Shown: one piece after another, positions 9,468 to 52,545 of the stretch | Layout of the letters: every line of letters starts with the position of its first letter | How positions within the stretch are numbered: the stretch's first letter is position 1 | DNA from: a virus | Taxonomy: Duplodnaviria; Caudoviricetes | Strand: one strand, 5' to 3' | DNA length: 64,000 nt | IMG/VR virus record: IMGVR_UViG_3300032314_000513 | Coordinates: 20,380-84,379 of that record | The notes under the pieces: model-generated | Told to the model about the DNA's origin: nothing | The model's input: only the letters and a program-made list of their open reading frames with translations | Databases searched by the model: none | Made by a program: the position numbers and the translations under genes

Positions 9468-9953
9468 ATGAAACAAAATAATAAATATATAATTCTAGGT
9501 ATTTTAGCAATTGGTGGCTATTTATTGTATAGAAAATATATGAAAAATAGTTCAACACAACCTGATTCTAATGTAAATTTTTTGGGTTTAAATATCCCTC
9601 CCATTCTAAATGATTGGAAAGATAATTTTGATAATAAAAGATTAGATGAAATAACCAATAATTACGCACCTGACGGTATTTTAGTATCTACTTTTGGAGA
9701 TATTTTAAAGGGTAGAAAGAAGATTAAAGACTATTTCAAAGGTTTATTTGAAAAAGATAATTTAAGTGTTGATTATTTAGGCACTCCTGATGTGAAAGAC
9801 TTGAAAGATGTTAAAGTATATACAGGTTTATATCAATTTAATTATTTAGAAAATGGTAAAATGAATCATGTTAAATCAAGATATTCATTCATTTCTAAAG
9901 AGATTGATGGTAAAACTTATATATTGAAACAACATTCTAGTGTTGCTAATTAA
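9468..9953 (+). CDS. Membrane-anchored NTF2/SnoaL-like protein
   Basis: N-terminal TM; WKDNF...YAPDGILV...LKGRKKIKDYF...QHSS. Confidence 0.7.
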   Translation: MKQNNKYIILGILAIGGYLLYRKYMKNSSTQPDSNVNFLGLNIPPILNDWKDNFDNKRLDEITNNYAPDGILVSTFGDILKGRKKIKDYFKGLFEKDNLSVDYLGTPDVKDLKDVKVYTGLYQFNYLENGKMNHVKSRYSFISKEIDGKTYILKQHSSVAN

Positions 9954-9975
9954 AAGTTAAAAAAAACCATAAAAT

Positions 9976-20273: not shown

Positions 20274-20888
20274 ATGGCACTTTTTGAATCAGAAAAAAAG
20301 AGAGTAACAGAAGCAAGTAATAGCTATGCACAGAAATATCCTTTAAGTGATAACATATCTAACTTACAAGCTAGTGTTAATGCGGCTAATGTAGATTTAG
20401 TTGGTTTAAGAAATGAACAACCTGAAACTGCAGGAGGTAAGCGTGTAAGACAAAGAAACATTACTGCTTTATCTAATAGAATTATGCAGCTTCAAAATAA
20501 AATTAAAGATTTACAAAGCGGTATGAGTGGTAGTGATATTATTAAAATTGCTTATCCTTCTTTTGCTACTCTTCCAAAAGTTACTTCTCAAACTATTTTA
20601 GGAAGTACACCATATAGCTTTCAGATACCAATGTTGAATATGCCAAATAGCGTTAAAAATATAGCAAAATCAAAACCTGCATCAACTACAACTGATGCAA
20701 CTGATTTAGCTGATAGTATTGCAAATAACGATGGTGTGCCTGTAGGTGGAGAAGCAAATGGTGCTAAAGGTGATTATCCACCTCCTTATGGAGTTCAAAA
20801 TTCAGGAAGTAAATCAATATTATTGTACGGTGGATTAGCAGTAATATTAGGTTTTACAGCTTATTATATGTTTATAAAGAAAAAATAA
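20274..20888 (+). CDS. C-anchored membrane protein, paralogue of the next gene
   Basis: KYP...KRVRQRNITAL; C-terminal TM. Confidence 0.75.
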   Translation: MALFESEKKRVTEASNSYAQKYPLSDNISNLQASVNAANVDLVGLRNEQPETAGGKRVRQRNITALSNRIMQLQNKIKDLQSGMSGSDIIKIAYPSFATLPKVTSQTILGSTPYSFQIPMLNMPNSVKNIAKSKPASTTTDATDLADSIANNDGVPVGGEANGAKGDYPPPYGVQNSGSKSILLYGGLAVILGFTAYYMFIKKK

Positions 20889-23241: not shown

Positions 23242-26200
23242 ATGAGTAGTACATTTTTAGGAGGAGATACTTTTAGTTTTATTAGTGGCGGTGCCGGTGG
23301 TGGCGGTGGAACTGATGGTTCTGCAGGTACATCAGGCGTATCAGGAACTTCAGGTACATCAGGTACTCTAGGTACTAGTGGTATAAGCTATGGCTCTAGT
23401 GGTACTAGTGGAACTAGTGCTTCTTCAGGTACTTCAGGCTCAACAGGTTTAACAGGTTCAAGCGGTACTTCAGGTGCAGGTGGTTCTAGTGGTACTTCAG
23501 GAAATTCAACTGCAGGTACTTCAGGTACAACAGGTTCAAGCGGTTCAAGTGGTTCAAGTGGTGTGAGTGGAACAAATGGTACAGCAGGTTCAAATGGTAC
23601 ATCAGGCTCTAGTGGAAATAATGGCTCTAGTGGTACTTCAGGTGCTGCAGGGTCAAGCGGTAATAGTGGTACTAGTGGTGTCAATGGTACTAGTGGAACA
23701 TCAGGTTCTACAGGTACATCAGGTTCTTCTGCCTCTTCAGGAACTTCAGGTTCTAGTGGTAGTGCAGGTACAACAGGTACGGATGGTAGTAATGGTACTT
23801 CAGGTTCAGCAGGTACTTCAGGTCGTGATGCAACTGCAGGAACAAGTGGTCGTGATGCGACTGCAGGAACAAGTGGTCGTGATGCGACTTCAGGTTTAGA
23901 TGGTTCTTCAGGTACTTCAGGAATAGATGGTACAAATGGTTCTTCAGGTACTTCTGCATCAAGTGGAACTTCTGCAACTAGTGGAGCAAATGGTACTTCA
24001 GGTACAGATGGTACAAGTGGTACTTCAGGTCGTGATGCAACTGCAGGTACTTCAGGACAAGATGCAACAGCAGGTACCTCAGGTTCTTCTGCAACAGCAG
24101 GAACTTCAGGTTCTTCTGCTTCTTCAGGTTCAAGTGGAACTAATGGTTCAAGCGGTACTTCAGGTACAACAGGCTCTTCAGGAACAGCAGGTTTATCAGG
24201 AGATAGATATAGAACGACCTCAAGTACTGAATTTACTTTATCAGGTTCAGGACAAATTACAATTACAATTGGTTTAGGCCTTTCTTACACAATAGGACAA
24301 GCTGTAACCATTGCTTACGATATTAACGACATTCAATTTGGTGATGTTGTATCTTATAATTCAAATAATGGAACTTTAGTATTTAATGCAACAACATTTA
24401 CAGGTTCAGGAACATACAACTTTTGGACTGTAAACTTATCAGGTGCTGCAGGAGGAGATGGTTCTTCAGGTACTTCAGGTTCTTCAGGAACAAATGGTAC
24501 TTCAGGTTCTTCAGGCACTAGTGGTACAAGTGCAAGTTCAGGTTCTAGCGGAACTACAGGAACAGATGGTTCTAGTGGTACAAGTGGAGTAGATGGTACT
24601 TCAGGTACTGATGGCTCTAGCGGTACTTCAGGCATTGATGGTACTTCAGGAACAGATGGTTCTAGTGGAACAGATGGTAGCTCAGGAACTTCAGGTTCTA
24701 GCGGAACTACAGGTACAGATGGTAGCTCAGGAACTTCAGGAACAGATGGTTCTAGTGGTACTTCAGGTACAGACGGAAGCTCAGGAACTGATGGTTCTTC
24801 AGGTACAACAGGTACAGATGGTTCAAGCGGAACAGATGGTAGCTCAGGTACAGATGGTAGCTCAGGAACTTCAGGAACTACAGGTACTACAGGTACTTCA
24901 GGTTCTTCAGGAACTAGTGGAACTTCTGCAACTTCAGGTTCAAGTGGAACTTCAGGTACAGATGGTAGCTCAGGAACTTCAGGCTCATCAGGAACTACAG
25001 GTACCTCAGGAACTTCAGGTTCTTCAGGAACAGATGGTTCTAGTGGTACTTCAGGCTCTAGTGGAACAACAGGTACTTCAGGTACTTCTGCAACAGCAGG
25101 TTTATCAGGAGATAGATATAGAACAGCCTCTACAACTTCTGCAACTTTAGGAGTTAGTGGTACTATAACAATCGGTTTATCTTTAGCATACACCTCTGCT
25201 CAAACATTTATAATGACTTATGATAGTTCAAACTATCAAATTTGTCAAGTAGTTACATATAATCCTTCAAATGGATTATTAACATATTCAGCACCTGTTA
25301 CAGTTGTAGGTTCAGGTACTTATGATGTATGGGTTGTTAACTTAGCAGGAGCTTCAGGAACTTCAGGTTCTTCAGGTACTTCTGCATCAAGTGGAACTTC
25401 AGGTACAACAGGTACTTCAGGTACGGATGGTAGTTCAGGAACTTCAGGTTCTTCAGGTACTTCAGGTTCAAGTGGAACTTCAGGTTCTTCAGCTACTTCA
25501 GGAACTTCTGCCTCTGCAGGAACTAGTGGTAGTTCAGGAGCAGCAGGAGATAGATATGCTACTACTTCAGTAGAAACATTTACATTAGGAAATAGTGGTT
25601 CATTAACCGTATCTCCTAATTTATCATATACTGTAGGTCAATCAATTATTATAGCTTATGATATTAATAATTACCAAGAGTGTAATGTAGTATCTTATAC
25701 AGCTGTTCCGGGTATATTATATTTTGATGCTCCTACAATAACAGTAGGTAGTGGAGAATATAGCTCATGGGAAATTAACTTAAATGGTGCTACAGGTGGT
25801 GCAGGTTCAAGTGGAACTTCAGGTTCTGCAGGAACTTCAGGAACTACAGGAACAGATGGTTCATCAGGAACAAGTGGTACAAGTGGTACAGACGGAAGCT
25901 CAGGTACAACAGGTACTGATGGTTCTAGCGGTTCTTCAGGTACTTCAGGTGAATCAGGTTCTTCAGGAACGAGTGGTAGCACAGGAACTTCAGGAAGCTC
26001 AGGAACAAGTGGTTCTTCAGGTACTTCAGGAGTAAGTGGTGCTAGTGGAACTTCAGGTTCTTCAGGTACAGATGGTAGCAATGGCACAAGTGGTAGCTCA
26101 GGTTCAAGTGGTACTGATGGTAGTAATGGAACTAGTGGTACAACAGGTACTAGTGGAACAGATGGTTCTAGTGGTACTTCTGCTGCTGATGGAACAAGCG

Positions 26201-26415
26201 GTACTTCAGGAGAAAATGGTACTTCAGGAACTACAGGAACAGATGGTTCAAGTGGTACTGATGGAAGTAGTGGAACTTCAGGCACAGCAGCAACAGCAGG
26301 TACAGCAGCAACTTCAGGATTATCTACTTTAATGGCAGGAACAAGTGGAAGTACAATTACTATTCCACCTGCAGAAGCAACTACTAGTACAACAACAACT
26401 ACTACAACAGTCTAA
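23242..26415 (+). CDS. Gly-Thr/Ser-triplet fibre protein with three internal beta-domains
   Basis: GTS/GSS/GTD triplets; three GDRY...SY...W.VNL.GA domains. Confidence 0.85.
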   Translation: MSSTFLGGDTFSFISGGAGGGGGTDGSAGTSGVSGTSGTSGTLGTSGISYGSSGTSGTSASSGTSGSTGLTGSSGTSGAGGSSGTSGNSTAGTSGTTGSSGSSGSSGVSGTNGTAGSNGTSGSSGNNGSSGTSGAAGSSGNSGTSGVNGTSGTSGSTGTSGSSASSGTSGSSGSAGTTGTDGSNGTSGSAGTSGRDATAGTSGRDATAGTSGRDATSGLDGSSGTSGIDGTNGSSGTSASSGTSATSGANGTSGTDGTSGTSGRDATAGTSGQDATAGTSGSSATAGTSGSSASSGSSGTNGSSGTSGTTGSSGTAGLSGDRYRTTSSTEFTLSGSGQITITIGLGLSYTIGQAVTIAYDINDIQFGDVVSYNSNNGTLVFNATTFTGSGTYNFWTVNLSGAAGGDGSSGTSGSSGTNGTSGSSGTSGTSASSGSSGTTGTDGSSGTSGVDGTSGTDGSSGTSGIDGTSGTDGSSGTDGSSGTSGSSGTTGTDGSSGTSGTDGSSGTSGTDGSSGTDGSSGTTGTDGSSGTDGSSGTDGSSGTSGTTGTTGTSGSSGTSGTSATSGSSGTSGTDGSSGTSGSSGTTGTSGTSGSSGTDGSSGTSGSSGTTGTSGTSATAGLSGDRYRTASTTSATLGVSGTITIGLSLAYTSAQTFIMTYDSSNYQICQVVTYNPSNGLLTYSAPVTVVGSGTYDVWVVNLAGASGTSGSSGTSASSGTSGTTGTSGTDGSSGTSGSSGTSGSSGTSGSSATSGTSASAGTSGSSGAAGDRYATTSVETFTLGNSGSLTVSPNLSYTVGQSIIIAYDINNYQECNVVSYTAVPGILYFDAPTITVGSGEYSSWEINLNGATGGAGSSGTSGSAGTSGTTGTDGSSGTSGTSGTDGSSGTTGTDGSSGSSGTSGESGSSGTSGSTGTSGSSGTSGSSGTSGVSGASGTSGSSGTDGSNGTSGSSGSSGTDGSNGTSGTTGTSGTDGSSGTSAADGTSGTSGENGTSGTTGTDGSSGTDGSSGTSGTAATAGTAATSGLSTLMAGTSGSTITIPPAEATTSTTTTTTTV

Positions 26416-26436
26416 TAAAATATAAAATAAATATAA

Positions 26437-28320
26437 ATGTCTTATTCTAATATTACCATAACCACTAACACAGGTTTATCATTTTATCCCGGCCAATATG
26501 TTCAGGTGATACATGATGAGAATAACTATATTTTTGGTCAAGTAGTAAGCTATGACCCTAATACAGGAATTTTTACTTTTTTACCTACAAATTTTTTAGG
26601 AGCAGGAACTTTTAATACATGGACTGTGGTGGCATCTGCTGTTTCAGGTTCAAGTGGTACTTCAGGTTCAAGTGGAACTTCAGGCTCTTCAGGTACAGAC
26701 GGAAGCTCAGGTACAGACGGAAGCTCAGGTTCAAGTGCAAGTTCAGGAGAAAGTGGAACTTCAGGTACATCAGGAGTAAGTGGTGCTAGTGGAACTTCAG
26801 GCTCTTCAGGAACTGATGGCTCAAGTGGTACTTCTGCATTAGATGGAACTAGTGGAACGACAGGAACTTCAGGAACTACAGGAACTAGCGGAACAGATGG
26901 TAGTTCAGGTTCAAGCGGTACATCAGGTTATGATGGAACAGCAGGAACTTCAGGCACTAATGGAACTGCAGGTACTTCAGGAGAAAATGGAACAAGCGGA
27001 ACAGATGGAAGCTCAGGTACAGATGGAAGCTCAGGAACATCAGGCACTAACGGAACAGCAGGAACAAGTGGAAGCTCAGGAACAGCAGCTACATCAGGTT
27101 TAAGTGGTGATTTATATAAAACAACAACAACTGATTCAATTGATTTAGGAACATTAGCTCCGGGTGATGGTATAAATATTACTGTAGCAACAGGATTAGC
27201 ATACACAATAGGTCAAACTGTAGTAGTATCTAATAGTATAACTGATTATTTAGAAGGAAATGTTAGTTCATACACATCTATTGATGGTGCAATGGAAATA
27301 TTAATAGTTACTATAGTTGGTACAGGTATATTTACTTCTTGGGAAGTTAACTTAGCAGGAGCAGCAGGAGGAGATGGTACAGCAGGTACTTCAGGCTCTG
27401 CAGGAACAAGCGGAACTAATGGAACTGATGGTTCTTCAGGTTCTAGTGGTACAAGTGGAGAAAATGGAACAAGCGGTACTTCAGGTTCTAGTGGTACTAA
27501 TGGAAGCTCAGGAGAAACAGGTACTTCAGGTACAACAGGAACATCAGGTTCTAGCGGTACTAGTGGAAATGAAGGTGCTGATGGTAATTTAGCAGAATGG
27601 TTATATAACCCAAGCCCTGATACTACAACAAATCCCGGAAGTACAAAATTTACATTAGACATTAACTCATGGGGAGAAACTGTAACTAGCATTGCGATTA
27701 GTGATAACGCATATAATCCTGCAGTAAATTTTTCTACATACTTAAATTTCATTGGAGCAAATACTGTTATTAGATTAACAAGTTTAATAGATAAATCTAC
27801 TTTTAAGTTTTTAAAAGTAATTACAAATACTCCTCTTACAGCAGGTTTTGAAAACTATGATGTAACACAAATTGGTAGTGGTGGTACTGACCCTGCTCCA
27901 AATGCTGTATTCTATTTTAATATTATTGGTGTAAGTGGTACTTCAGGAACAAGTGGAACTAGTGGAAGCTCAGGTACTTCTGCTTCTGCAGGAACAAGTG
28001 GAAGCTCAGGTACAAATGGTACAGCAGGTACTTCAGCATCTTCAGGTAGTAGCGGTTCTTCAGGAACTAGTGGTACAAATGGTACAGCAGGTACTTCTGC
28101 TTCATCAGGAACTAGTGGTTCATCAGGAACAAGTGGTAGCTCAGGTACTTCAGCTTCTAGCGGTACTTCAGGAACAGATGGAAGCTCAGGTACAGCGGCT
28201 TCTTCAGGTTCTAGTGGAACAGCAGGTACTTCAGCATCTTCAGGAACTGCAGCAACCTCAGGTAATTCATCAACATATAATGGTACTTCAGGAACAACAC
28301 AAACATTACCTTTGACTTAG
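26437..28320 (+). CDS. Second Gly-Thr/Ser fibre protein
   Basis: Same triplets; N-truncated and internal copies of the beta-domain. Confidence 0.85.
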   Translation: MSYSNITITTNTGLSFYPGQYVQVIHDENNYIFGQVVSYDPNTGIFTFLPTNFLGAGTFNTWTVVASAVSGSSGTSGSSGTSGSSGTDGSSGTDGSSGSSASSGESGTSGTSGVSGASGTSGSSGTDGSSGTSALDGTSGTTGTSGTTGTSGTDGSSGSSGTSGYDGTAGTSGTNGTAGTSGENGTSGTDGSSGTDGSSGTSGTNGTAGTSGSSGTAATSGLSGDLYKTTTTDSIDLGTLAPGDGINITVATGLAYTIGQTVVVSNSITDYLEGNVSSYTSIDGAMEILIVTIVGTGIFTSWEVNLAGAAGGDGTAGTSGSAGTSGTNGTDGSSGSSGTSGENGTSGTSGSSGTNGSSGETGTSGTTGTSGSSGTSGNEGADGNLAEWLYNPSPDTTTNPGSTKFTLDINSWGETVTSIAISDNAYNPAVNFSTYLNFIGANTVIRLTSLIDKSTFKFLKVITNTPLTAGFENYDVTQIGSGGTDPAPNAVFYFNIIGVSGTSGTSGTSGSSGTSASAGTSGSSGTNGTAGTSASSGSSGSSGTSGTNGTAGTSASSGTSGSSGTSGSSGTSASSGTSGTDGSSGTAASSGSSGTAGTSASSGTAATSGNSSTYNGTSGTTQTLPLT

Positions 28321-28330
28321 AAAATATAAA

Positions 28331-30652
28331 ATGAATAATATAAATCCAAATACCTTATTAGCTGCTAGTGGAAATAATAACCCTACTAATAATAATATTC
28401 GTACTCTAATTCAATTTTTATGGCAAGTACAAGGAGCAACTTCATATTATCCAACACCTATTGGTATAAATGATATAGGATATGGAGCAAGTGATGAAAC
28501 ATTCTTTTTTAATGGAGTAGATTCAGATTTATTAAGTTCTAATTATCAAGAAGATATATTCATAGTAGTAAGGAATTTGACAAGTATAGCTCCTTATGAC
28601 CAAACTTATGATATAAGATACGCTAATAATGCAAATGAATTAATTCAAATTGCAAATTCATATTTATTCGAAGGTCAATCAGCTTATACAAATACAAGTA
28701 CAGCAATTAATGGGATGTTAAATAGTAACATTCTAATTATGCCATATAATTTACCAAATTTTTCAACTAATTTACAAGTTGTTCCTACAGATGGAGATGC
28801 AGGAAATTTAGGTATCGTATGCGGTTTTATTTCAGGATTTACCTCTTGTATATCAAAATATCTTACAACACCTGCATTAGTTAGATGTTTTACATCAGGA
28901 TACACACAAGGTGATAATGTTGGAACTTATATGTCTAACAACACAAACCCAATTGTTTTAAGTTATGCAAATAATTATGCAATTCAAATGGTTGAGGGGG
29001 AAAATTTAGAATTAAATAATACAGGTGATATTCCTAATGGTTCAGAATCTTTTTCTTTTAGTTGTTGGTTTAAAGCAGATAATACATCTACTACACAAGT
29101 TTTGGCATCATGGGGATATATTCAAGTACAAATAACAAACAACAATGTTCAAATACTTGTTAATGGAACTTATCAAGATTTAGGTGGAAGTGTTTTATCT
29201 GCAGATACTTGGTACAATGTATTTTTTACATACGATACAACAAGTTCCTTATTAAGTTATGAGCTATTTAATTTTAGTGGCTCTATTGATTCAGGTAATA
29301 CAACTGTTGCTATAAATAACCCAACTCAAAACTTTTATTTAAGTGATTCTACAAATGTTGACAGTTTTGTAGGTTACATTAAATCTTGCATGTTGTATTC
29401 ATTTACATTATCTCAGAATCAAATAGATAGTGATTATGCTAATATGGTGGCTTTAGTTAATGCTACACCATCAGCTCCAACAACAACTACAACTAGTACT
29501 ACTACAACAACAACTACAATTTGTGCACCATATATTAATAATATTATTATTTCTAATGGTTCTTATACTGCTGCCAATGGAACTTATACAAGAGCTAATC
29601 CTTCAGAAGCTTTTGCTCTAACAGGTGGAGGTGGTTCTATATTCTTTGGTGGTGATGCTTGGTATATTTTTAATACTGCAGTTGGTAATGTTGCAAGAAA
29701 TACCTCTCAGCTAGGTACAGGAACTTGGGAACCTTGGGCTCCGGGAAATTCAACAGGAATTACTGCAGAGTATTCTAGTTATGTTTGTCCAACAACGACA
29801 ACTACGACAACTAGCACCACAACTACTTCTACAACGGAAGTTCCTACAACTACAACTAGCACCACAACTACTTCTACAACGGTAGCTCCTACTACTAGTA
29901 CGACTACGACAACTAGTACAGCATCAGGAGGTCTCGTTACAGATGGATTAATAGTTAATTTAGATGCAAGTAATCCTTCTTCTTATTCAGGCTCAGGTAA
30001 TACATGGACTGACTTAACAGGTAATGGATATAATGCAACAAGACAAGGTTCTGTACCATTTACTTCAGCAGGTCAACAATCTTATTTTGGTTTTAGTGGC
30101 TCAAGTTCTAATTACTTCTTAGGTAATAGTAATTTATATGGATTTAACTCTAATCAAATTAGTGGAACTGTTGGTATAACTGTTTCAATGATATTTAGAC
30201 CATCAAATACTAGTACTAGAAGCACTTTATGGTCAACTTACGCAAGTGATAAAGGAAGTGTTTTTGAAATTGGAACATTAGGTGGATTATGGACAAATAC
30301 ATTAAGACAGTATTTAAGTGATAATGGTCCTATTCGTAGCTCTGATAATAGAGGTGGTGCAAATACAATATCAAATGGAACAACTTACTTAATGACAGTT
30401 ACTTGGAATCAATCAACTTTTACAAGTACTATGTATGTAAATGGTAGTGCAATTGCACAAAGTAATGTTGGTTTTAATAAAAATAATATAACTTCAGCTT
30501 GGGCTAACTCAGCTAACTATAATTTAGGAGGAGACCCAACTCAAACAGGTACTTATGGAAATTTATATACTGCTTATGTATACAATAGACCATTGACAGC
30601 AGGAGAAGTGTTACAAAACTATAACGCATTACAATCAAGATTTGGATTATAA
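28331..30652 (+). CDS. Two-LamG/ConA lectin-like protein with Thr linkers
   Basis: FSFSCWF...WYNVFFTY; LDASNPSSYSGSGNTWTDLTGNG; VLQNYNA. Confidence 0.8.
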   Translation: MNNINPNTLLAASGNNNPTNNNIRTLIQFLWQVQGATSYYPTPIGINDIGYGASDETFFFNGVDSDLLSSNYQEDIFIVVRNLTSIAPYDQTYDIRYANNANELIQIANSYLFEGQSAYTNTSTAINGMLNSNILIMPYNLPNFSTNLQVVPTDGDAGNLGIVCGFISGFTSCISKYLTTPALVRCFTSGYTQGDNVGTYMSNNTNPIVLSYANNYAIQMVEGENLELNNTGDIPNGSESFSFSCWFKADNTSTTQVLASWGYIQVQITNNNVQILVNGTYQDLGGSVLSADTWYNVFFTYDTTSSLLSYELFNFSGSIDSGNTTVAINNPTQNFYLSDSTNVDSFVGYIKSCMLYSFTLSQNQIDSDYANMVALVNATPSAPTTTTTSTTTTTTTICAPYINNIIISNGSYTAANGTYTRANPSEAFALTGGGGSIFFGGDAWYIFNTAVGNVARNTSQLGTGTWEPWAPGNSTGITAEYSSYVCPTTTTTTTSTTTTSTTEVPTTTTSTTTTSTTVAPTTSTTTTTSTASGGLVTDGLIVNLDASNPSSYSGSGNTWTDLTGNGYNATRQGSVPFTSAGQQSYFGFSGSSSNYFLGNSNLYGFNSNQISGTVGITVSMIFRPSNTSTRSTLWSTYASDKGSVFEIGTLGGLWTNTLRQYLSDNGPIRSSDNRGGANTISNGTTYLMTVTWNQSTFTSTMYVNGSAIAQSNVGFNKNNITSAWANSANYNLGGDPTQTGTYGNLYTAYVYNRPLTAGEVLQNYNALQSRFGL

Positions 30653-30678
30653 AAAAAACCATAAAAAACTAAAAAACT

Positions 30679-31476
30679 ATGCCATACGCAGATTTAACAT
30701 TTCAACTTCAGCCTAATCTGAGATTTGTTGCAAATGATTTTGTAACACTAACAGGTGTTAACTATACTACTACAACTAGTACTACAACTACTACAACTAC
30801 ATTGAATGTAATAAGTAGTGGATTGCAATTATATGTTGATGCTAGTAATCCTGCTTCATATTCAGGAACAGGAAGTACATGGTATGATTTAAGTGGAAAT
30901 GGTTATAATGGTACATTAAGTGGTAGTACAGCTTATAATTCTGCAAACGGTGGTTATATTTCCACACAATCTAATACAGGATATATAGATTTTGGTCTTT
31001 CTTCTCAAGGAAGTAGTACTAGTGCTTTTACTTGGGGTGGTTGGTTTAATGTTCCAAGTTTTACAAATATCCCTATGGCAAGAGGCAATGATATGACAGG
31101 AGGTTATCCCAATGGATGGAATCTTGCTACTGTATTCTTGTCAAACGCATTTAATGCTTCAATAATCACTTCTGTACCCGGTATAACTCAAACAAATAGT
31201 TCATACTCTTCAAGTCCAAGTAGTAATACTTGGTATAATCATATATCAGTATGGAATCCGGGAGTAAGTTTAAAAGTATATATAAATGGTGTTTTAAGAG
31301 CTACTGTAAATACTTCAAATACAGTTTTAAGAAATTCAGGTACAGGTTGGAATAGTTCAAATGATGCTACAAAGTATAACGCTAGTTATGGTTCAATGAT
31401 TGTTTATAATATAGCATTGAGTGATGCACAAGTTCTTCAAAACTTTAATTCAACTAAAACAAGATTTGGATATTAA
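30679..31476 (+). CDS. LamG/ConA lectin-like protein with a partial fibre domain at the N-terminus
   Basis: MPYADLTFQLQPNLRFVANDFV, Thr run, VDASNPASYSG... Confidence 0.8.
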   Translation: MPYADLTFQLQPNLRFVANDFVTLTGVNYTTTTSTTTTTTTLNVISSGLQLYVDASNPASYSGTGSTWYDLSGNGYNGTLSGSTAYNSANGGYISTQSNTGYIDFGLSSQGSSTSAFTWGGWFNVPSFTNIPMARGNDMTGGYPNGWNLATVFLSNAFNASIITSVPGITQTNSSYSSSPSSNTWYNHISVWNPGVSLKVYINGVLRATVNTSNTVLRNSGTGWNSSNDATKYNASYGSMIVYNIALSDAQVLQNFNSTKTRFGY

Positions 31477-31488
31477 AAATTAAAAATT

Positions 31489-31725
31489 ATGAAAAAATAT
31501 TTAATATTATTTTTATTATTATTTAGCATTAATTCTTATTCTCAAGTAGATAGCACTAAAAGAGCAGCAGCTAGACAAGAATGGTTATCTAATAAAGATA
31601 ATTGGAGTAATGGTCAATCGATGCCTAATTGGGATTTGGATGGTAATATTATACCAATAGTGGGTATTTTATTAATATCATCCATATTTTTAAAAAGAAA
31701 GAATAAATTAAGGTTTGGACTATAA
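31489..31725 (+). CDS. Small signal-peptide and TM protein
   Basis: MKKYLILFLLLFSINSYSQ signal; C-terminal TM. Confidence 0.65.
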   Translation: MKKYLILFLLLFSINSYSQVDSTKRAAARQEWLSNKDNWSNGQSMPNWDLDGNIIPIVGILLISSIFLKRKNKLRFGL

Positions 31726-31736
31726 AATAATTAACA

Positions 31737-32738
31737 ATGGCTAACGCATCAATATATGGAAGAGTAGTAAGTTATAATACCGTAACAGGCGTTATGGTGG
31801 TAACACCGCTTTCTTATTCAGGAGATGCAGGTTCTTATAGTACTTGGACTGTCTCATTAGATGGTCAAAATGGTACTTCAGGAACTTCAGTTATTTCAGG
31901 AACAAGTGGAACAAATGGAAGTTCAGGTACTTCAGGCACTAGTGGTACATCAGCTTCTTCAGGTTCTTCAGGAACAAGTGGAAGTGCAGGTACTTCAGCT
32001 TTATCTAATTCATCAGGTACATCAGGTACAAGTGGTTCTGCAGGTACAAGTGCTGTACAAGGCGGTCAAGGTCCTACAGGTGCAACAGGTCCTCAAGGCC
32101 CTCAAGGATTAGGTGGTTCTTCAGGAACTTCAGGCTCTTCAGGTGCTACAGGTCCTCAAGGACCAATAGGAGCTCAAGGTCCTCAAGGATTTACAGGTAA
32201 TCCGGGTCCGACAGGTCCTACAGGTGCAACAGGACCACAAGGCCCAACAGGTACTTCTGCAAGTTATAATCAAGATAATAATGCAGGAGCATCAGTTACA
32301 TTTACTTATCCTACTACTACAGGTACTTTTTATGCAGGAAGTAGATTTTATATGCCCGGTGACGCTTATTTAGGAATAGCAGGAAGTTATGGTCCTGTTT
32401 GGTTTGGATTTAACTTTGGTTGGGCTAGTAATGCAGGATTAGGAGGGGCATACTTTTTTAACTCATCTTCAAGAGAATCTAAAAAAGAAATTAAGCCATA
32501 TACTGATTCTGCAACTGAAATAATTAATAGCACAGAAATAGTTACTTTTGATATGGAAAGTGGAGAACATACTCATATAGAACATATTGGTTTTATTGCA
32601 GAAGATACTCCGCAAGAATTATCAACTCCTGACCATAATGTAATGGATATTACAAACACAGTTGGAGTTGTTTTAAAAGCAATTCAAGAAATTGATGATA
32701 GAATAACAGCATTACAAAATAAAAATAACAATGGCTAA
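31737..32738 (+). CDS. Collagen-like fibre tip with peptidase S74 chaperone
   Basis: GPT/GPQ; [21 protein letters not shown]. Confidence 0.85.
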
Positions 32739-33795
32739 CGCAACTTTTAATTGCTCACCTAATTTAAGCTATGTAGCAGGAGATTTCGTACAGCTAAGTT
32801 ACGATGCGAATAACTATGTTATTGGTACGGTAGTGTCATATAATGATATAACAGGTGTTATGGTAATTACTCCTGTACAATCTATTGGAAGTGGAACTTA
32901 TTCTATATGGAATGTTGCTTTGACAGGTAATGCAGGTACAGCAGGAACTAATGGTACAGCAGGAACAGCAGGTTCAAGTGGAACTTCAGCTTCATCAGGT
33001 ACTGCAGGTACTGCAGGTAGTTCAGGTACAAGTGGTTCGGCAGGTACAAGTGCATTTTCAGGTACAAGTGGTACATCAGGTACTAGTGGTTCGGCAGGAA
33101 CGAGTGCATCCTCAGGAACTTCAGGAGCTATTGGACCAACAGGTGCTCAAGGTCCTCAAGGACCAATAGGTGCAACAGGAACTTCAGGTTCATCAGGAGT
33201 TTCAGGAGTTAATGGTCCAACAGGACTAACAGGTGCAACAGGTCCTACAGGTGCAACAGGTCCGCAAGGTCCTGCTACTCCCGGTCCAACAGGACCAACA
33301 GGTTCTCCCGGAGGTCAAGGTCCACAAACAGTTTATAATCAAGCATTAACAACTAGTTCAAATGTTACTTATGGTGATATGGCTAGTAATAGCCCATTAG
33401 CAGGTGGTAACTTTTTAGTACCTAATGGAGGTAAAGTTTCTAATAGTGCTAATCAAGGTGTAAGTTGGTATGGTAATAGTGGTACTTGGTTTTCTTATGG
33501 CTCTATAGGTTCTGCATATTTCTTTGGAACTTCTACAAGAGAAGTAAAAAAGAATATTCAACCTTTTACTAAATCAGGTATAGACCTTATCAAACAAACA
33601 GAAATTGTATCTTATAAGTACGAAAATGAAACAGTTTATACTGATTTAACAAAAATAGGATTCATTGCAGAAGAAACACCTGAAGAAATGTCTTCAAAAG
33701 ACCACGACCAAATGGTAATAAATTCTACAATATGTGTAGCTATGAAAGCAATTCAAGAGTTAGATGAAAAAATTAAAAACTTACAAAATAAATAG
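32731..33795 (+). CDS. Collagen-like fibre tip with S74 chaperone
   Basis: [21 protein letters not shown]. Confidence 0.85.
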
Positions 33796-33797
33796 AT

Positions 33798-34160
33798 ATG
33801 ACAATTAATGATATTAAATATACATGGGAAATAACTCATTTACATGTAGCACCATCAAAAAACAATCAAAATAATGTAGTTACAAAAATTGCCTTTACTT
33901 TACATGGTGAATATACCAATGAAGTAGGTCAATTTTTTAGTGAATTTTGGACAGGAGCAACATTAATAGAATTTGATGAAAATTCTTCATTTACAAATGT
34001 TGACCAAATAACTCATGAAATGGCTGTAAAATGGGTAGAAGATTCTGAAAACAAAAAACAAAGAAATGTAAATTGGATTAAAAATAAAGTATTAACAAGA
34101 CTTCAAGAAAAAATTAATCCAAGTGTAGTAGTAATTACTCCTCCTTTTGCACAAAAATAA
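33798..34160 (+). CDS. Fibre-associated protein
   Basis: YTWEI...NNVV pattern, seen in genes next to phage fibres; family recalled. Confidence 0.55.
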   Translation: MTINDIKYTWEITHLHVAPSKNNQNNVVTKIAFTLHGEYTNEVGQFFSEFWTGATLIEFDENSSFTNVDQITHEMAVKWVEDSENKKQRNVNWIKNKVLTRLQEKINPSVVVITPPFAQK

Positions 34161-34170
34161 TTAAGAAACA

Positions 34171-35244
34171 ATGCCTTATTCTAATTTGACATTTACTGTA
34201 AATACAAATCTTTCATTTGTAGCAAATGATTTTGTACAGCTTAGTGCAAATTCTACCAATTATATTATTGGAAGAGTAGTGTCATATAATCCTAGCACAG
34301 GTGCATTAATTATAACTCCTTTAGAATCAGTTGGTTCAGGCTCTTATAGTTCATGGACTGTTGCATTAACAGGATTTTATGGAACTTCAGGAACATCAGG
34401 TACGGCAGGTACTATGGGCTCTTCTGCTACAAGTGGATTATCAAGTTCATCAACTGCTGCAGGTTCTTCAGGTACATCTGCATCAAGTGGTAGTTCAGGC
34501 ATTGCAGGTTCAAATGGTACATCAGGTGCATCTGCTTCTTCAGGTTCTTCAGGTTTAGCAGGAGCTAATGGTGCAACAGGACCACAAGGTCCAATAGGCC
34601 CAACAGGTGCTCAAGGACCTCAAGGAGCTAGAGGTACATCAGGTTCTAGTGGTGTTAATGGAGGAACAGGTCCGCAAGGTCCTCAAGGAGCTAGAGGTCC
34701 GCAAGGCCCAACAGGAGCTAGTCCACAAGGTCCAACAGGTCCAACAGGTCCGCAAGGTCCTTCAAATACAAATGGTCAATCATTAAACTATGGTGATTCT
34801 CCAACATTTGCTAGTATAACTGCAAATGGACAAGTTTATTCTGCATCAAATATTAGAAATAATGGTGGTGTAAGAGGTATGTATGTAAATGGATATGGCA
34901 TATATTTTTACAATAATACTTCAAGTCAATGGTATAGTAATGGTGGAATTGGTGCAGGTGGTGGTAATTTTTTCCCTGCATCTACTAGAGAAGTTAAAAA
35001 GAATATTGAGCCTTTTACTAAATCAGGTTTAGATATAATAAACAGTACAGATATTGTTTCTTTTGAGTTTGAGATTACAGGACTTGAAGGACAAACACAC
35101 ATAGGATTTATTGCAGAAGATACCCCTGAAGAATTAGCTACTAGTACTCATGACCAAATGGTTGTACCTTCTAATTTAGGTGTTGTTATGAAAGCTTTAC
35201 AAGAATTAGATGAAAAATTAAAAATATTAGAGAATAATACTTAA
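34171..35244 (+). CDS. Collagen-like fibre tip with S74 chaperone
   Basis: [21 protein letters not shown]. Confidence 0.85.
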
Positions 35245-49162: not shown

Positions 49163-49834
49163 ATGGCAGAAGTACAGGCTTTAGCATTAACGCAGGAACA
49201 ATTACTGCAATTTCAGATAGTAAATAATACAAATTTTCCTATCCCTAACATTCCGTTTTTAACACAGAATGATAGTTTTAATGCTACAACTCAATATCAA
49301 TATACACTTCCACCAAATCTTAATATACCAACTGTAATAACGCCTGTTGTTACTATTTTAAATACACCTGCATTACAAACAATAATTCCTATTGATGTTA
49401 CTACAGGAACTCAACTTACTTATGAGCAAATAACTACATCTATTAGTACTAATAATTATAGTACTAATTTCTTTTATGCTCAATCTGTAAGTTGTAATCA
49501 AGTAGGTCAGGTATTTACATATAATGATACTGATATAGCAGGTAATGGAACTGTAAATGCACTTCCATTTACTATTGACCCTTATCAAAAACAATGTGCT
49601 GTTTATTATTATCCTCCTGAAAATCTTGTAACTTTTAATGGTACTAGTTCATTAAACTTTACTATGTTAGCTGATACTACATTAAATTTAAAAGTATTTT
49701 CTAGTAGTACTTCTCCTTCTCAAATATTAGATGAAATATCAGGATACAAAGACAATGCTTTTACAGAAATAGAAGCGGCTATGGGTTCTGATGTATTTAC
49801 TGATTATTGTAACTATTTAATTGATAACGAATAA
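49163..49834 (+). CDS. Paralogue of the putative major capsid protein
   Basis: DIAGN...IDPYQKQ aligns with DANGN...IDPYQQQ. Confidence 0.7.
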   Translation: MAEVQALALTQEQLLQFQIVNNTNFPIPNIPFLTQNDSFNATTQYQYTLPPNLNIPTVITPVVTILNTPALQTIIPIDVTTGTQLTYEQITTSISTNNYSTNFFYAQSVSCNQVGQVFTYNDTDIAGNGTVNALPFTIDPYQKQCAVYYYPPENLVTFNGTSSLNFTMLADTTLNLKVFSSSTSPSQILDEISGYKDNAFTEIEAAMGSDVFTDYCNYLIDNE

Positions 49835-52545
49835 TGCCAAGTTTTACAATAAATATTAATGGAGATAACTATACAGTAGGCTATGATGGAACATTTAATA
49901 GTCCACAAGGCTTACTTCCTGCATTAAATAATTTAGGATTTGGTACATTTTGGATAGAACAAGTTAGTGGAAATAATGTATTAACTACAACAGACAATGT
50001 TAATGTATATTCAACTGCTGAGACTAATTCTGACCCAACTACGACTACTACAACAAGTACGACTACAACAAGTACTACTATAGCTCCTATTCCAACAAGT
50101 ACGACCACTAGTACAAGTACTACAACGACTACAGAAACTTCTACAAGTACAACTACAACGAGTACAACACTTGCTCCGACAACGAGTACGACCACAACTA
50201 CAACTACTCCTGCAGGACCAACAACAACGAGTACGACAACAACTACTACAACATTATTTGCTCAAACAGTAAGATATGCAAGTAATCAAACAGATGCTTG
50301 TTTAAATCCAACAGGTACTCAGAATGTAACAGGTAACGCTACATCTTTTTGTGGTTGTACGATATTTAATTCAGCAGGTTTTGTAACGCTTCCTAATGGA
50401 AACTATGTTTTAGCTTATAGCGGTAGCACTTTAAATATTAATATTTCAGGATTCCCAACTACAACTGCAACTGTTTATGGTGGTGGATGCGGAACTTGTC
50501 CTTTAAGTACTTCAACTACCACTACAAGTACTACCCTACAACAAGTTTGGTATCAATTAACAAATTGTAATGGAGGCGGTACTGTTTATACAACAAATTA
50601 TGATATTGGCTATGCAATAGTAGGTGATAGAGTATTTGGAACTGTTTTAGGTGTTCCTTCAACTTTAGTAGTGGCAAGTGTATTATTTAGCAACCCCGGT
50701 GGAACTCAAATAGGGATTGTTAATTCAGGGTTAACAGGCTGTCCTGCTTCTACTACAACTACTACAACTACTACAACATTACCTCCTGTAACTTTAGATT
50801 TAACTGCTAATTGTACAGGAGTTACGCAAACAATAACGATAGATAATTTCGCAGGTGGTGATGGTGTAACTTATTATGCAAATGACACTACTTATGATAA
50901 TCCTTCTTCTGCATCAGGTGGAGCTACAAGCATTATCGTAGGTGGAACTAGAACTTATAATAATCAACCAAACGGAACTAGATATATATATGTTTTTAGT
51001 GCAAGTAGAAATACTGTTAAACAAGGTGGTCAAACTGATTGTGTAACTACAACAAGTACAACTACAACTACTACAACTATACAACAAGTATGGTATGCAA
51101 TGGATATTTGTGATGTAGGTGGAACAGCTAATTCGACAAATTATGATATTGGCTATGCTGCAGTAACAGACAGGGTGTTTGGGACAGTTTCAGGCACTCC
51201 AAGAACATTAGTAGTTACTTCAGTATTAACTTCAGACCCCGGTGGAACACAAATAGGGATTACTAATTCAGGTTTAACAGGTTGTCCTACCACTACAAGT
51301 ACTACGACTACTACTACTACCCAAGCACCTGTCAATGCAAGTGTTAACTCGGTATGTACAGGAATTACGCAAACAATAACTGTAAATAACTTTACAGGTG
51401 GAGATGGAGCAACATATTATGCTAATACAACTACTTATGCAGACCCTGTAAGTGCTGCTGCAGGTCCTGTTACTTTAGTAATTGGTGGAACAAGAGATTA
51501 TCTAAATCAAACAAATGGTACTAGATATATTTATATAACATCTACAATCAGAACAAATGTTGTATCAGGTGGTCAAGTTTGTACAACAACAACAACTACT
51601 ACTTCTACTTCAACAAGTACAACAAGCACAACTTTTACAACTAGCAGTACAACAACTACGACTACTCTTCCTCCAATTAATGTTACTATAAGCTCGGTGT
51701 GTACAGGAGTTACTCAAACAATAAGTTTAAATTCATTCAGCGGTGGAGATGAAACTACTTATTTTGCAAGTGACACAACTTATTCTAGTCCTGCCTTAGC
51801 AGTTGCAGGTCCAACAAGTATAATTGTAGGAGGAACAAGAAGTTATACAAATCAGCCAAATGGAACAAGATATGTATATGTAACATCAGGAAATGTTAAT
51901 GTTATTAAGCAAGATGGTCAAACTTGTACTACGACAACTTCTACTACAACAAGTACAACTACTTTACCAATAACTAGTACTACAACTACGACTACAACTT
52001 TGCCAATAACTAGTACAACTACGACTACAACAACTTTACCTCCTGTAACTGCTAATATTAGCTCAGTTTGTACAGGAATTACCCAAACAATAACAGTTGA
52101 TACATTTGGCGGTGGAAGTGGAACTTATTTTGCAAGTACGACAACTTATGGAGACCCTGCAAGTGCAGCATCAGGTCCTGTAACTTCAGTTTCAGGCTCA
52201 AGAGATTATACAAATCAGCCAAATGGTACACGATATGTATATGTAACTTCAACAGGTGGTGCTCCTGTAGTGAAGCAAGGCGGACAAACTTGTACTACGA
52301 CAACTTCTACTACAACAAGTACAACTACTACTGCTCCAACTTGTACATCTTGGAATGTAGCTAATTTTAATGGATTTGGATTAACTGATACTGTTTTCTA
52401 TGTAGATTGTGCAGGTACTTCTACATCTCAAATTGTAAATGACGGCAATCAATTTGATATTTGTGTATTAGATTCAGGAATACCTACTCCTTATATGGAA
52501 TTTGGATATGGTTCAGTTAATACTAATTCAACCCCTTGCACTTAA
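49834..52545 (+). CDS. Thr-rich mucin-like surface protein with Cys-bounded repeat domains
   Basis: Poly-Thr linkers; two QVWY domains and four CTG[VI]TQT domains. Confidence 0.85.
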   Translation: MPSFTININGDNYTVGYDGTFNSPQGLLPALNNLGFGTFWIEQVSGNNVLTTTDNVNVYSTAETNSDPTTTTTTSTTTTSTTIAPIPTSTTTSTSTTTTTETSTSTTTTSTTLAPTTSTTTTTTTPAGPTTTSTTTTTTTLFAQTVRYASNQTDACLNPTGTQNVTGNATSFCGCTIFNSAGFVTLPNGNYVLAYSGSTLNINISGFPTTTATVYGGGCGTCPLSTSTTTTSTTLQQVWYQLTNCNGGGTVYTTNYDIGYAIVGDRVFGTVLGVPSTLVVASVLFSNPGGTQIGIVNSGLTGCPASTTTTTTTTTLPPVTLDLTANCTGVTQTITIDNFAGGDGVTYYANDTTYDNPSSASGGATSIIVGGTRTYNNQPNGTRYIYVFSASRNTVKQGGQTDCVTTTSTTTTTTTIQQVWYAMDICDVGGTANSTNYDIGYAAVTDRVFGTVSGTPRTLVVTSVLTSDPGGTQIGITNSGLTGCPTTTSTTTTTTTQAPVNASVNSVCTGITQTITVNNFTGGDGATYYANTTTYADPVSAAAGPVTLVIGGTRDYLNQTNGTRYIYITSTIRTNVVSGGQVCTTTTTTTSTSTSTTSTTFTTSSTTTTTTLPPINVTISSVCTGVTQTISLNSFSGGDETTYFASDTTYSSPALAVAGPTSIIVGGTRSYTNQPNGTRYVYVTSGNVNVIKQDGQTCTTTTSTTTSTTTLPITSTTTTTTTLPITSTTTTTTTLPPVTANISSVCTGITQTITVDTFGGGSGTYFASTTTYGDPASAASGPVTSVSGSRDYTNQPNGTRYVYVTSTGGAPVVKQGGQTCTTTTSTTTSTTTTAPTCTSWNVANFNGFGLTDTVFYVDCAGTSTSQIVNDGNQFDICVLDSGIPTPYMEFGYGSVNTNSTPCT

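Follow-up and report, generated by a model that had tools for sequence, protein, structure and literature searches.

In the donor-strand complementation of chaperone-usher pili and the strand exchange of type V pili in Bacteroidota, incomplete subunits are chained by a strand that their neighbour supplies. There, Ig-like pilins without a C-terminal strand receive an N-terminal extension as donor, in an assembly that depends on a chaperone and an usher or else on a protease; chaperone and usher genes would not be expected for a virion fibre. In the phage Tuc2009 baseplate (BppU-BppA), trans-completion of a domain attaches an accessory carbohydrate-binding protein, as solved by crystallography (PMC4742702). 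In the Pseudomonas podophage A1002, likewise solved, the nozzle is split into gp39 and gp42 and fibre dimers are docked by β-sheet augmentation (PMC13730344). Here, we analyse a stretch of 64,000 nucleotides (the window), positions 20,380 to 84,379 of the IMG/VR record IMGVR_UViG_3300032314_000513 (Caudoviricetes; 84,379 bases, estimated 75% complete), in which nine genes on the + strand (23242-35244, named by their first position in the window) form a cluster of collagen-like fibre genes and their neighbours, and in which a small barrel domain appears divided between genes. A limited literature search retrieved no account of this barrel, nor any of split joints in collagen-like viral fibres; the principle of a trans-completed domain is known, the variant in collagen-like viral fibres is new and its binding is predicted.

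We give a rough probability of 0.55 to the reading that the cluster encodes a segmented virion fibre, the pieces of which are joined by the divided barrel. Within one chain, the ~84-residue barrel would connect two collagen-like triple helices. At a gene boundary, the proximal protein would close with a donor peptide of ~20 residues that lies past the final collagen stretch and corresponds to barrel strand 1, and the distal protein would start with the remainder of the barrel (start MPYSN..), so that insertion of the donor strand into the incomplete barrel would yield a joint that copies the internal domain with no covalent link. The joints would run from 23242 to 26437 and on to the tip fibres ending in Peptidase_S74 domains (S74 tips), with the triple helix continued. 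At a second cut, in the turn after the third strand, a half-domain (30679 residues 1-24) would bear cargo on a poly-Thr linker and probably complete the truncated barrel of 31737, setting the cargo at the joint. Physical binding, geometry and the occupancy of the stalk by the tips are what we infer from the comparisons described below. If the joints work in this manner, they would explain how exchangeable segments, each encoded separately, can make up very long collagen-like virion fibres, and how a fibre can be fitted with accessory binding domains where no invertases or diversity-generating elements are involved. Donor peptide and acceptor domain would be a compact natural plug-and-socket pair, which could aid the annotation of fibre gene order in uncultured viruses by indicating which protein follows which and which, once binding is shown, could serve as a protein-assembly tag.

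With Tuc2009, the predicted joint has in common that the C-terminal extension of one structural protein completes the β-sheet of the next protein's incomplete domain, the composite looking whole, and that the attached protein has a carbohydrate-binding module, comparable to the LamG-like cargo in the window. However, the Tuc2009 domain is an Ig/titin-like sandwich in a siphophage baseplate, whereas here the fold is a small barrel, flanked by collagen helices and lacking its N-terminal part, the joints are repeated along the fibre and the binding is predicted; no sequence relationship was found. A1002 resembles the proposed joints in that one canonical domain is shared between two genes and made whole again by strands in trans and in that fibre units dock by an augmented β-sheet, but it concerns a beta-propeller/platform fold in another part of the particle and comes without collagen-like helices, cargo cassettes or repeated joints. 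In contrast to the subunits of chaperone-usher pili, the window domain is a small barrel with the missing strand N-terminal and the donor C-terminal. The unbroken barrels of single-chain collagen-like phage fibres, including the four internal copies of the window, belong to the same family but are covalently continuous.

The domain was delineated by masking the Gly-X-Y runs and aligning the non-collagen islands to one another, and an 84-position profile was built from seven copies of the cluster. With this profile, eight copies of the ~84-residue domain were found in the whole 84-kb record, all of them inside the fibre cluster (expectation value (E) 8.5e-39 to 3.1e-9). Four internal copies are complete (profile 1-84), three in the protein at 23242-26415 and one in that at 26437-28320, and the others are truncated, which bears out the proposal of the initial annotation, made from the sequence alone, that one fibre domain is split at gene boundaries. 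In 26437, 32731 and 34171, the copy at the N-terminus starts at profile positions 14-17, lacking strand 1 (profile 1-16) and beginning at the next strand as had been noticed; 30679 (about 17-45) and 31737 (44/45-84) also carry incomplete domains. The first 25 residues of 30679 match those of 34171 (16/25 identical, E 2e-9), and the pieces of 30679 and 31737 tile the domain with neither gap nor overlap, exactly the division suggested earlier for these two genes. Extended by the 24 residues of half 1, 31737 would measure 357 amino acids (aa), the length of 34171.

An exhaustive profile search yielded a domain family of 4829 representative proteins at E≤1e-3. Among the best 150 proteins, 363/389 internal copies start at profile position ≤11, and strand 1 therefore belongs to the domain; a separate class of N-terminal copies begins M-[PSA]-Y-.. 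at profile position 17. The domain has no name: Pfam gave nothing above noise (LSM/Tudor/SH3-like, E 0.02-0.09), no PHROG and no PDB sequence matched, and Foldseek with the domain model returned nothing at E≤1e-3, while its neighbours in the ESM Atlas are viral collagen-repeat proteins. The AlphaFold2 (AF2) model of an internal copy (predicted local distance difference test (pLDDT) 79.6, core >90) is an all-beta small barrel. The top structural matches include a domain of a JBD30 baseplate protein (Z 8.4, root-mean-square deviation 4.7 over 89 residues) and barrels of F1/V1 ATPases, HerA and Upf1-type helicases; these matches show a common fold and imply no function. Mapped onto the model by way of the alignment, each cut lies in a predicted loop, one following the second short strand (model 21-23) and the other in the turn at model 49-52.

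Both stalk proteins, 23242 (stalk fibre A, donor type 1) and 26437 (stalk fibre B, donor type 2), carry a peptide of the form [Y/M]xGTSGxxxT[I/L]P after the last collagen stretch. Both tails can be aligned with strand 1 in a single register (Y7, T10, S11, T16, I/L17), the matched positions being those most conserved in strand 1; the GTSG core is at the same time the most frequent collagen triplet pair in these proteins. A strand-1 matrix was derived with 191 internal copies as input and the composition of the fibre proteins themselves as background. In this matrix, the tail of 26437 scores 5.4, that of 23242 scores 1.7 and the tails of distant relatives score 11-13, compared to a mean of 22.9 for true strand 1 and a maximum of 1.9 among 1179 collagen-region control windows, so that donor types 2 and 3 beat all of the controls. 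Among the C-termini of the 53 + strand open reading frames (ORFs) of the window, the two donor tails rank first and second, the next scoring -4.2. Because of the scores of 5.4 and 1.7 relative to the control maximum, we consider the sequence resemblance of type 2 to strand 1 moderate and that of type 1 marginal. The idea that the stalk tails represent the first strand is thereby upheld for 26437 and left marginal for 23242, whose donor is moreover not the extreme C-terminus but is followed by a 15-residue poly-Thr remnant. A profile-profile comparison of the donor peptides with the domain produced no alignment, the donor profile being too short and too shallow. The type-2 motif Y.GTSG..TLP is invariant in six lineages. 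The type-1 donor is conserved in L053, L051, L057 and L028, with poly-Thr and often a Cys-rich cargo domain after it; a small Cys-rich cargo domain follows the donor in L053, L051, L057, L060 and L069, with a poly-Thr linker between in all but L069, and in the window 23242 has kept only the linker and lost the cargo.

Three scans of viral contigs and one look-up provided relatives from about 15 distinct lineages. In 15/15 evaluable lineages, the first strand-less gene is directly preceded by a gene whose product bears the donor motif past its final collagen stretch, and in L061, L062, L063, L070 and L079 this donor protein is an unrelated, non-fibre protein of ~200 aa with only a short collagen stretch. 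For more distant donors (L070, L065), the genomic context led to no virion-type assignment. From the window to L053, synonymous changes in the donors are many and replacement changes almost absent, with ratios of non-synonymous to synonymous change (pN/pS) of 0.05 (type 1) and 0.08 (type 2), compared to 0.28-0.30 for the half-domains (half 1 0.28) and 0.14-0.44 for the intact acceptors. Judged by these ratios, the donor peptides are under strong purifying selection, and half 1 and half 2 are constrained like intact domains. Natural fusions add to this picture. In L010 (4912-8688), stalks A and B are fused into a protein of 1258 aa, and neither a type-1 donor nor a type-1 acceptor is present; in L028 (10001-12835), stalk B is fused to an S74 tip, and neither a type-2 donor nor separate acceptor-bearing tips are present. 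Donor and acceptor are therefore present or absent as a pair, and repeated joining and separation of fibre segments has evidently taken place in this group of viruses. The analysis shows how the sequence is laid out, that this layout is conserved, that selection acts on the pieces and that both cuts lie in predicted loops.

For the complex of the 34171 acceptor with the 26437 donor, each modelled with a small alignment, the interaction prediction score from aligned errors (ipSAE) was 0.34 versus 0.01 for the best control, at least 97% of contacts agreed between runs and the partner pLDDT was at least 57. In the calibration of the tool, the mark was reached by 58/80 solved complexes and 2/110 mismatched pairs, and scores ≤0.60 were given by only 7 of those 80 complexes and by both passing mismatches. 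We thus count this model as a weak pass, obtained for one pair of tail and truncated domain. A tethered AF2 model of the in-frame 23242-26437 junction (donor 1, poly-Thr, spacer with TAA as Q, acceptor) gave no docking, with a donor pLDDT <50; since the alignment is shallow and the linker long, this run is uninformative. The chaining of subunits by domain completion, as put forward in the initial annotation, is accordingly the best fit to the comparative evidence of adjacency, selection and paired absence in fusions, while the direct modelling contributes one weak pass and no docking at the joint between the two stalks.

The two cuts have different histories. In a tree on profile columns 21-84, 33/34 N-terminal copies fall in one clade (support 0.999), with only one internal copy (in P0031) inside this acceptor clade. 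The boundary between strands 1 and 2 thus belongs to a single monophyletic class of old modules and did not arise by recurrent fission. The mid-domain cut, on the other hand, has recurred, each time at the same turn, in three separate cases of a paralogue or lineage. In the 31737-type tip it is found in the window, L053 and L051, whereas the L064 orthologue is intact (76% identity over the half-domain, from its residue 30); the 34171-type tip is cut in the close relative L009 and intact in the window; and the third tip is cut in L010 and intact in the L057 orthologue (64% identity). A gene of half 1, poly-Thr linker and cargo lies directly upstream of the cut in the window, L053, L051 and L010, and in L009 a LamG gene, whose N-terminus is off the contig, lies directly upstream of the cut tip. 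The cargo varies by case between LamG-like and two kinds of Cys-rich domain. One Cys-rich domain of ~75 aa ends stalk A in L057, after the type-1 donor, and follows half 1 in L053 and L051, indicating that cargo cassettes move. Random split points in relatives had been named as a result that would refute the initial idea; the comparison of homologues shows the same boundaries and the same turn recurring. Since each mid-domain cut carries an inserted poly-Thr linker and cargo, both alternatives initially offered, domain completion and recurrent gene fission by insertion, hold in part, the latter for the mid-domain cut and not for the strand 1 boundary. Poly-Thr linkers, which tether small cargo domains shuffled between positions, were noted at 26380-26412, 29500-30000 and 30766-30801 of the window, at 9650-9974 and 11606-11998 of L053 and at 5340-5650 of L057, and the poly-Thr DNA also matches inside a 903-aa ORF of the window (49834-52545).

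The main rival to strand completion is that donor peptides and strand-less domains are independent end-modules, their shared likeness being the fossil of an old gene fission; the peptide would cap or register the collagen helix or be a modification or docking site for some other partner, and the N-terminal domain would by itself provide anchorage to the capsid vertex or to a different protein. This would agree with several findings that weigh against a strand-completed fibre: the acceptor alone was modelled as a folded domain (pLDDT 70-80) and may therefore not need the donor, the likeness of the type-1 donor to strand 1 is marginal, acceptors outnumber donors with one type-2 donor per three tips, and a pass as weak as that of the complex model would, on the calibration of the tool, turn out false more often than true unless backed by a good prior. 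Further points that count against strand completion are that no relative was found in which one intact domain replaces donor and acceptor at the orthologous position (the L010 A-B fusion holds no barrel domain at the fusion point), and that no cultured relative turned up, the phage collection giving only a 36% match to an uncultured 735-kb phage and a scan of prokaryote genomes giving none. End-modules that act independently would, however, leave unaccounted for the strict adjacency of donor and acceptor genes, which extends to donors on unrelated ~200-aa proteins, the disappearance of both elements in natural fusions and the register match on the most conserved positions; adjacency, paired absence and selection weaken this explanation, and we regard it as rather doubtful. 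Another view takes the cuts as neutral scars left by poly-Thr-linked cargo cassettes recombining into fibre genes, with the donors and half 1 as functionless leftovers. The occurrence of poly-Thr DNA at several places of the genome, the mobile Cys-rich cargo and the 23242 protein with its linker but no cargo speak for such recombination, yet the leftover pieces are under purifying selection equal to or stronger than that on intact domains and conserved down to relatives of ~40% identity, and the cut recurs at one turn only, which makes this view improbable. Lastly, the pieces could be one protein interrupted by mis-assembly, a sequencing frameshift or programmed read-through, given that one frame is common to 23242 and 26437, and likewise to the two members of the L010 pair and of the L028 pair. 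In-frame spacers contain two to four TAA stops each (four in the 21 nucleotides (nt) between 23242 and 26437), and spacer length (2 to 52 nt) and frame vary between lineages, on which grounds read-through or recoding was rejected; as the same boundaries occur in independent contigs from different metagenomes, assembly error is excluded as well, leaving hardly any room for an artefact.

How the tips share the stalk is a separate question. Exactly three tip genes are present in seven lineages (the window, L053, L051, L057, L010, L060 and L064), and within a lineage the collagen spans of the three are near equal (131/133/130 in the window, 209/212/209 in L057 and 185/187/184 in L064), while the span differs between lineages and the tip paralogues are divergent in sequence. 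The equal spans therefore suggest co-assembly or an equal-length constraint, not free alternatives. This goes against the earlier expectation that one stalk accepts alternative tips for combinatorial receptor binding, and so do the lack of an acceptor in 28331 and the half-domain of 30679, which with its LamG-like cargo more likely completes 31737. It is possible, although we lean against it, that the three S74 tips are the chains of one heterotrimeric tip, as in C1q, whose three different acceptors take up the three donor strands that a single stalk trimer offers, with one cargo added per joint by the split chain. Such a heterotrimer would oppose only the combinatorial-tips part of the initial annotation and is compatible with strand completion. 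It would account for the number of tip genes, for spans that are near equal within and different between lineages, and for paralogues that diverge in sequence despite equal spans, and it would settle the stoichiometry at three donors to three acceptors. Equal length could, however, also reflect a need for equal reach, and to our knowledge characterised S74-chaperoned fibres are homotrimers, which counts against it. The equal-length rule of the tips in any case raises the testable idea of heterotrimeric viral collagen fibres. A step further, and more tentative, is a three-piece barrel composed of the donor strand, the 24-residue cargo half-domain and the truncated tip N-terminus, which would act as a programmable branch point with the three tip paralogues heterotrimeric and, as a result of the heterotrimer, with exactly one cargo per joint. 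If this were true, natural fragment complementation would be the way in which exchangeable segments from separate genes are built into long collagen fibres, and it would hold generally among many uncultured phages.

Table 1. Positions of the fibre cluster features in the window.
Feature	Position	Strand	Description
Stalk fibre A	23242..26415	+	1057 aa; collagen-like Gly-X-Y and three complete internal barrel domains; Pfam Collagen 2.2e-83
Complete internal barrels of stalk fibre A	24190-24444, 25099-25350, 25537-25788	+	Profile positions 1-84
Candidate donor peptide, type 1	26317..26412	+	..LMAGTSGSTITIPPAEA, then poly-Thr linker remnant, then stop
Putative acceptor domain (barrel without strand 1), N-terminus of stalk fibre B	26437..26646	+	Profile 17-83 = residues 1-67
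Stalk fibre B	26437..28320	+	627 aa; Pfam Collagen 2.3e-40
Candidate donor peptide, type 2	28246..28317	+	TAATSG..YNGTSGTTQTLPLT; core Y..TLP at 28276-28311
LamG protein	28331..30652	+	773 aa; Laminin_G_3, poly-Thr linkers, second LamG-like C-terminal domain
Half 1 of acceptor domain	30679..30750	+	Profile ~17-45, two strands; N-terminus of 265-aa LamG-like cargo protein (30679-31476)
Poly-Thr linker of 30679 protein	about 30766-30801	+	Follows half 1
78-aa ORF	31489..31725	+	Signal-peptide-like N-terminus and second hydrophobic stretch; between the two half-domain genes
Half 2 of acceptor domain	31737..31868	+	Profile 44/45-84; N-terminus of S74 tip fibre 1 (31737-32738); PF13884 and Collagen
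S74 tip fibre 2	32731..33795	+	Intact acceptor domain 32731-32928 (profile 15-84); PF13884 31.6 bits
DUF7936 protein	33798..34160	+	PF25590 45.2 bits
S74 tip fibre 3	34171..35244	+	Intact acceptor domain 34171-34374 (profile 16-84); PF13884 31.6 bits

Family matches define the proteins of the cluster further. The collagen family PF01391 scores 274 bits in 23242, 137 bits in 26437 and 49-54 bits in the three tips, whose C-termini all exceed the cut-off of 22 for Peptidase_S74 (29.8 bits in 31737), the intramolecular chaperone of endosialidase-type fibres. Stalk fibre B is ordered as acceptor domain, collagen, a complete internal domain (27097-27360), a 112-aa domain (27592-27927), collagen and donor peptide. 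The 112-aa non-collagen domain belongs to no family and is conserved in L010, L028, L053 and L051. Stalk N-termini are of two unrelated types, the MSSTFLGGDTFSFISGG type in the window (23242-23300), L060 and L064 and a Cys-containing domain of ~50 aa (MNVTCSA..CPVILDSTCVFYEGP) in L053 (8187-8340), L010, L028, L057 and L069, which presumably represent two ways of anchoring to the particle. In the 28331 protein, Laminin_G_3 (PF13385) matches residues 228-365 (33.4 bits vs a cut-off of 27.6), and the profile search gave no barrel match. The 30679 cargo has no Pfam match and shows 57% identity over 46 aa to the C-terminal domain of 28331 as well as a match to phrog_24074 at 8e-19.

The DUF7936 gene lies directly upstream of the third tip gene in all seven three-tip lineages, with homologues in L053, L010, L057, L051, L060 and L064, and its product could be an assembly factor. 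Its C-terminus was considered as a second donor and ruled out by strand-1 matrix scores of -12 to -21. The 78-aa ORF matched no family and is missing at the corresponding place in L053, L051 and L009, and hence is probably a recent insertion. Finally, long ORFs overlap the collagen-coding DNA (23388-26285 and 26928-27752) in other frames or on the opposite strand, e.g., 24354-25193 on the - strand; these are by-products of the repetitive GGN/ACN/AGY codons and not genes.

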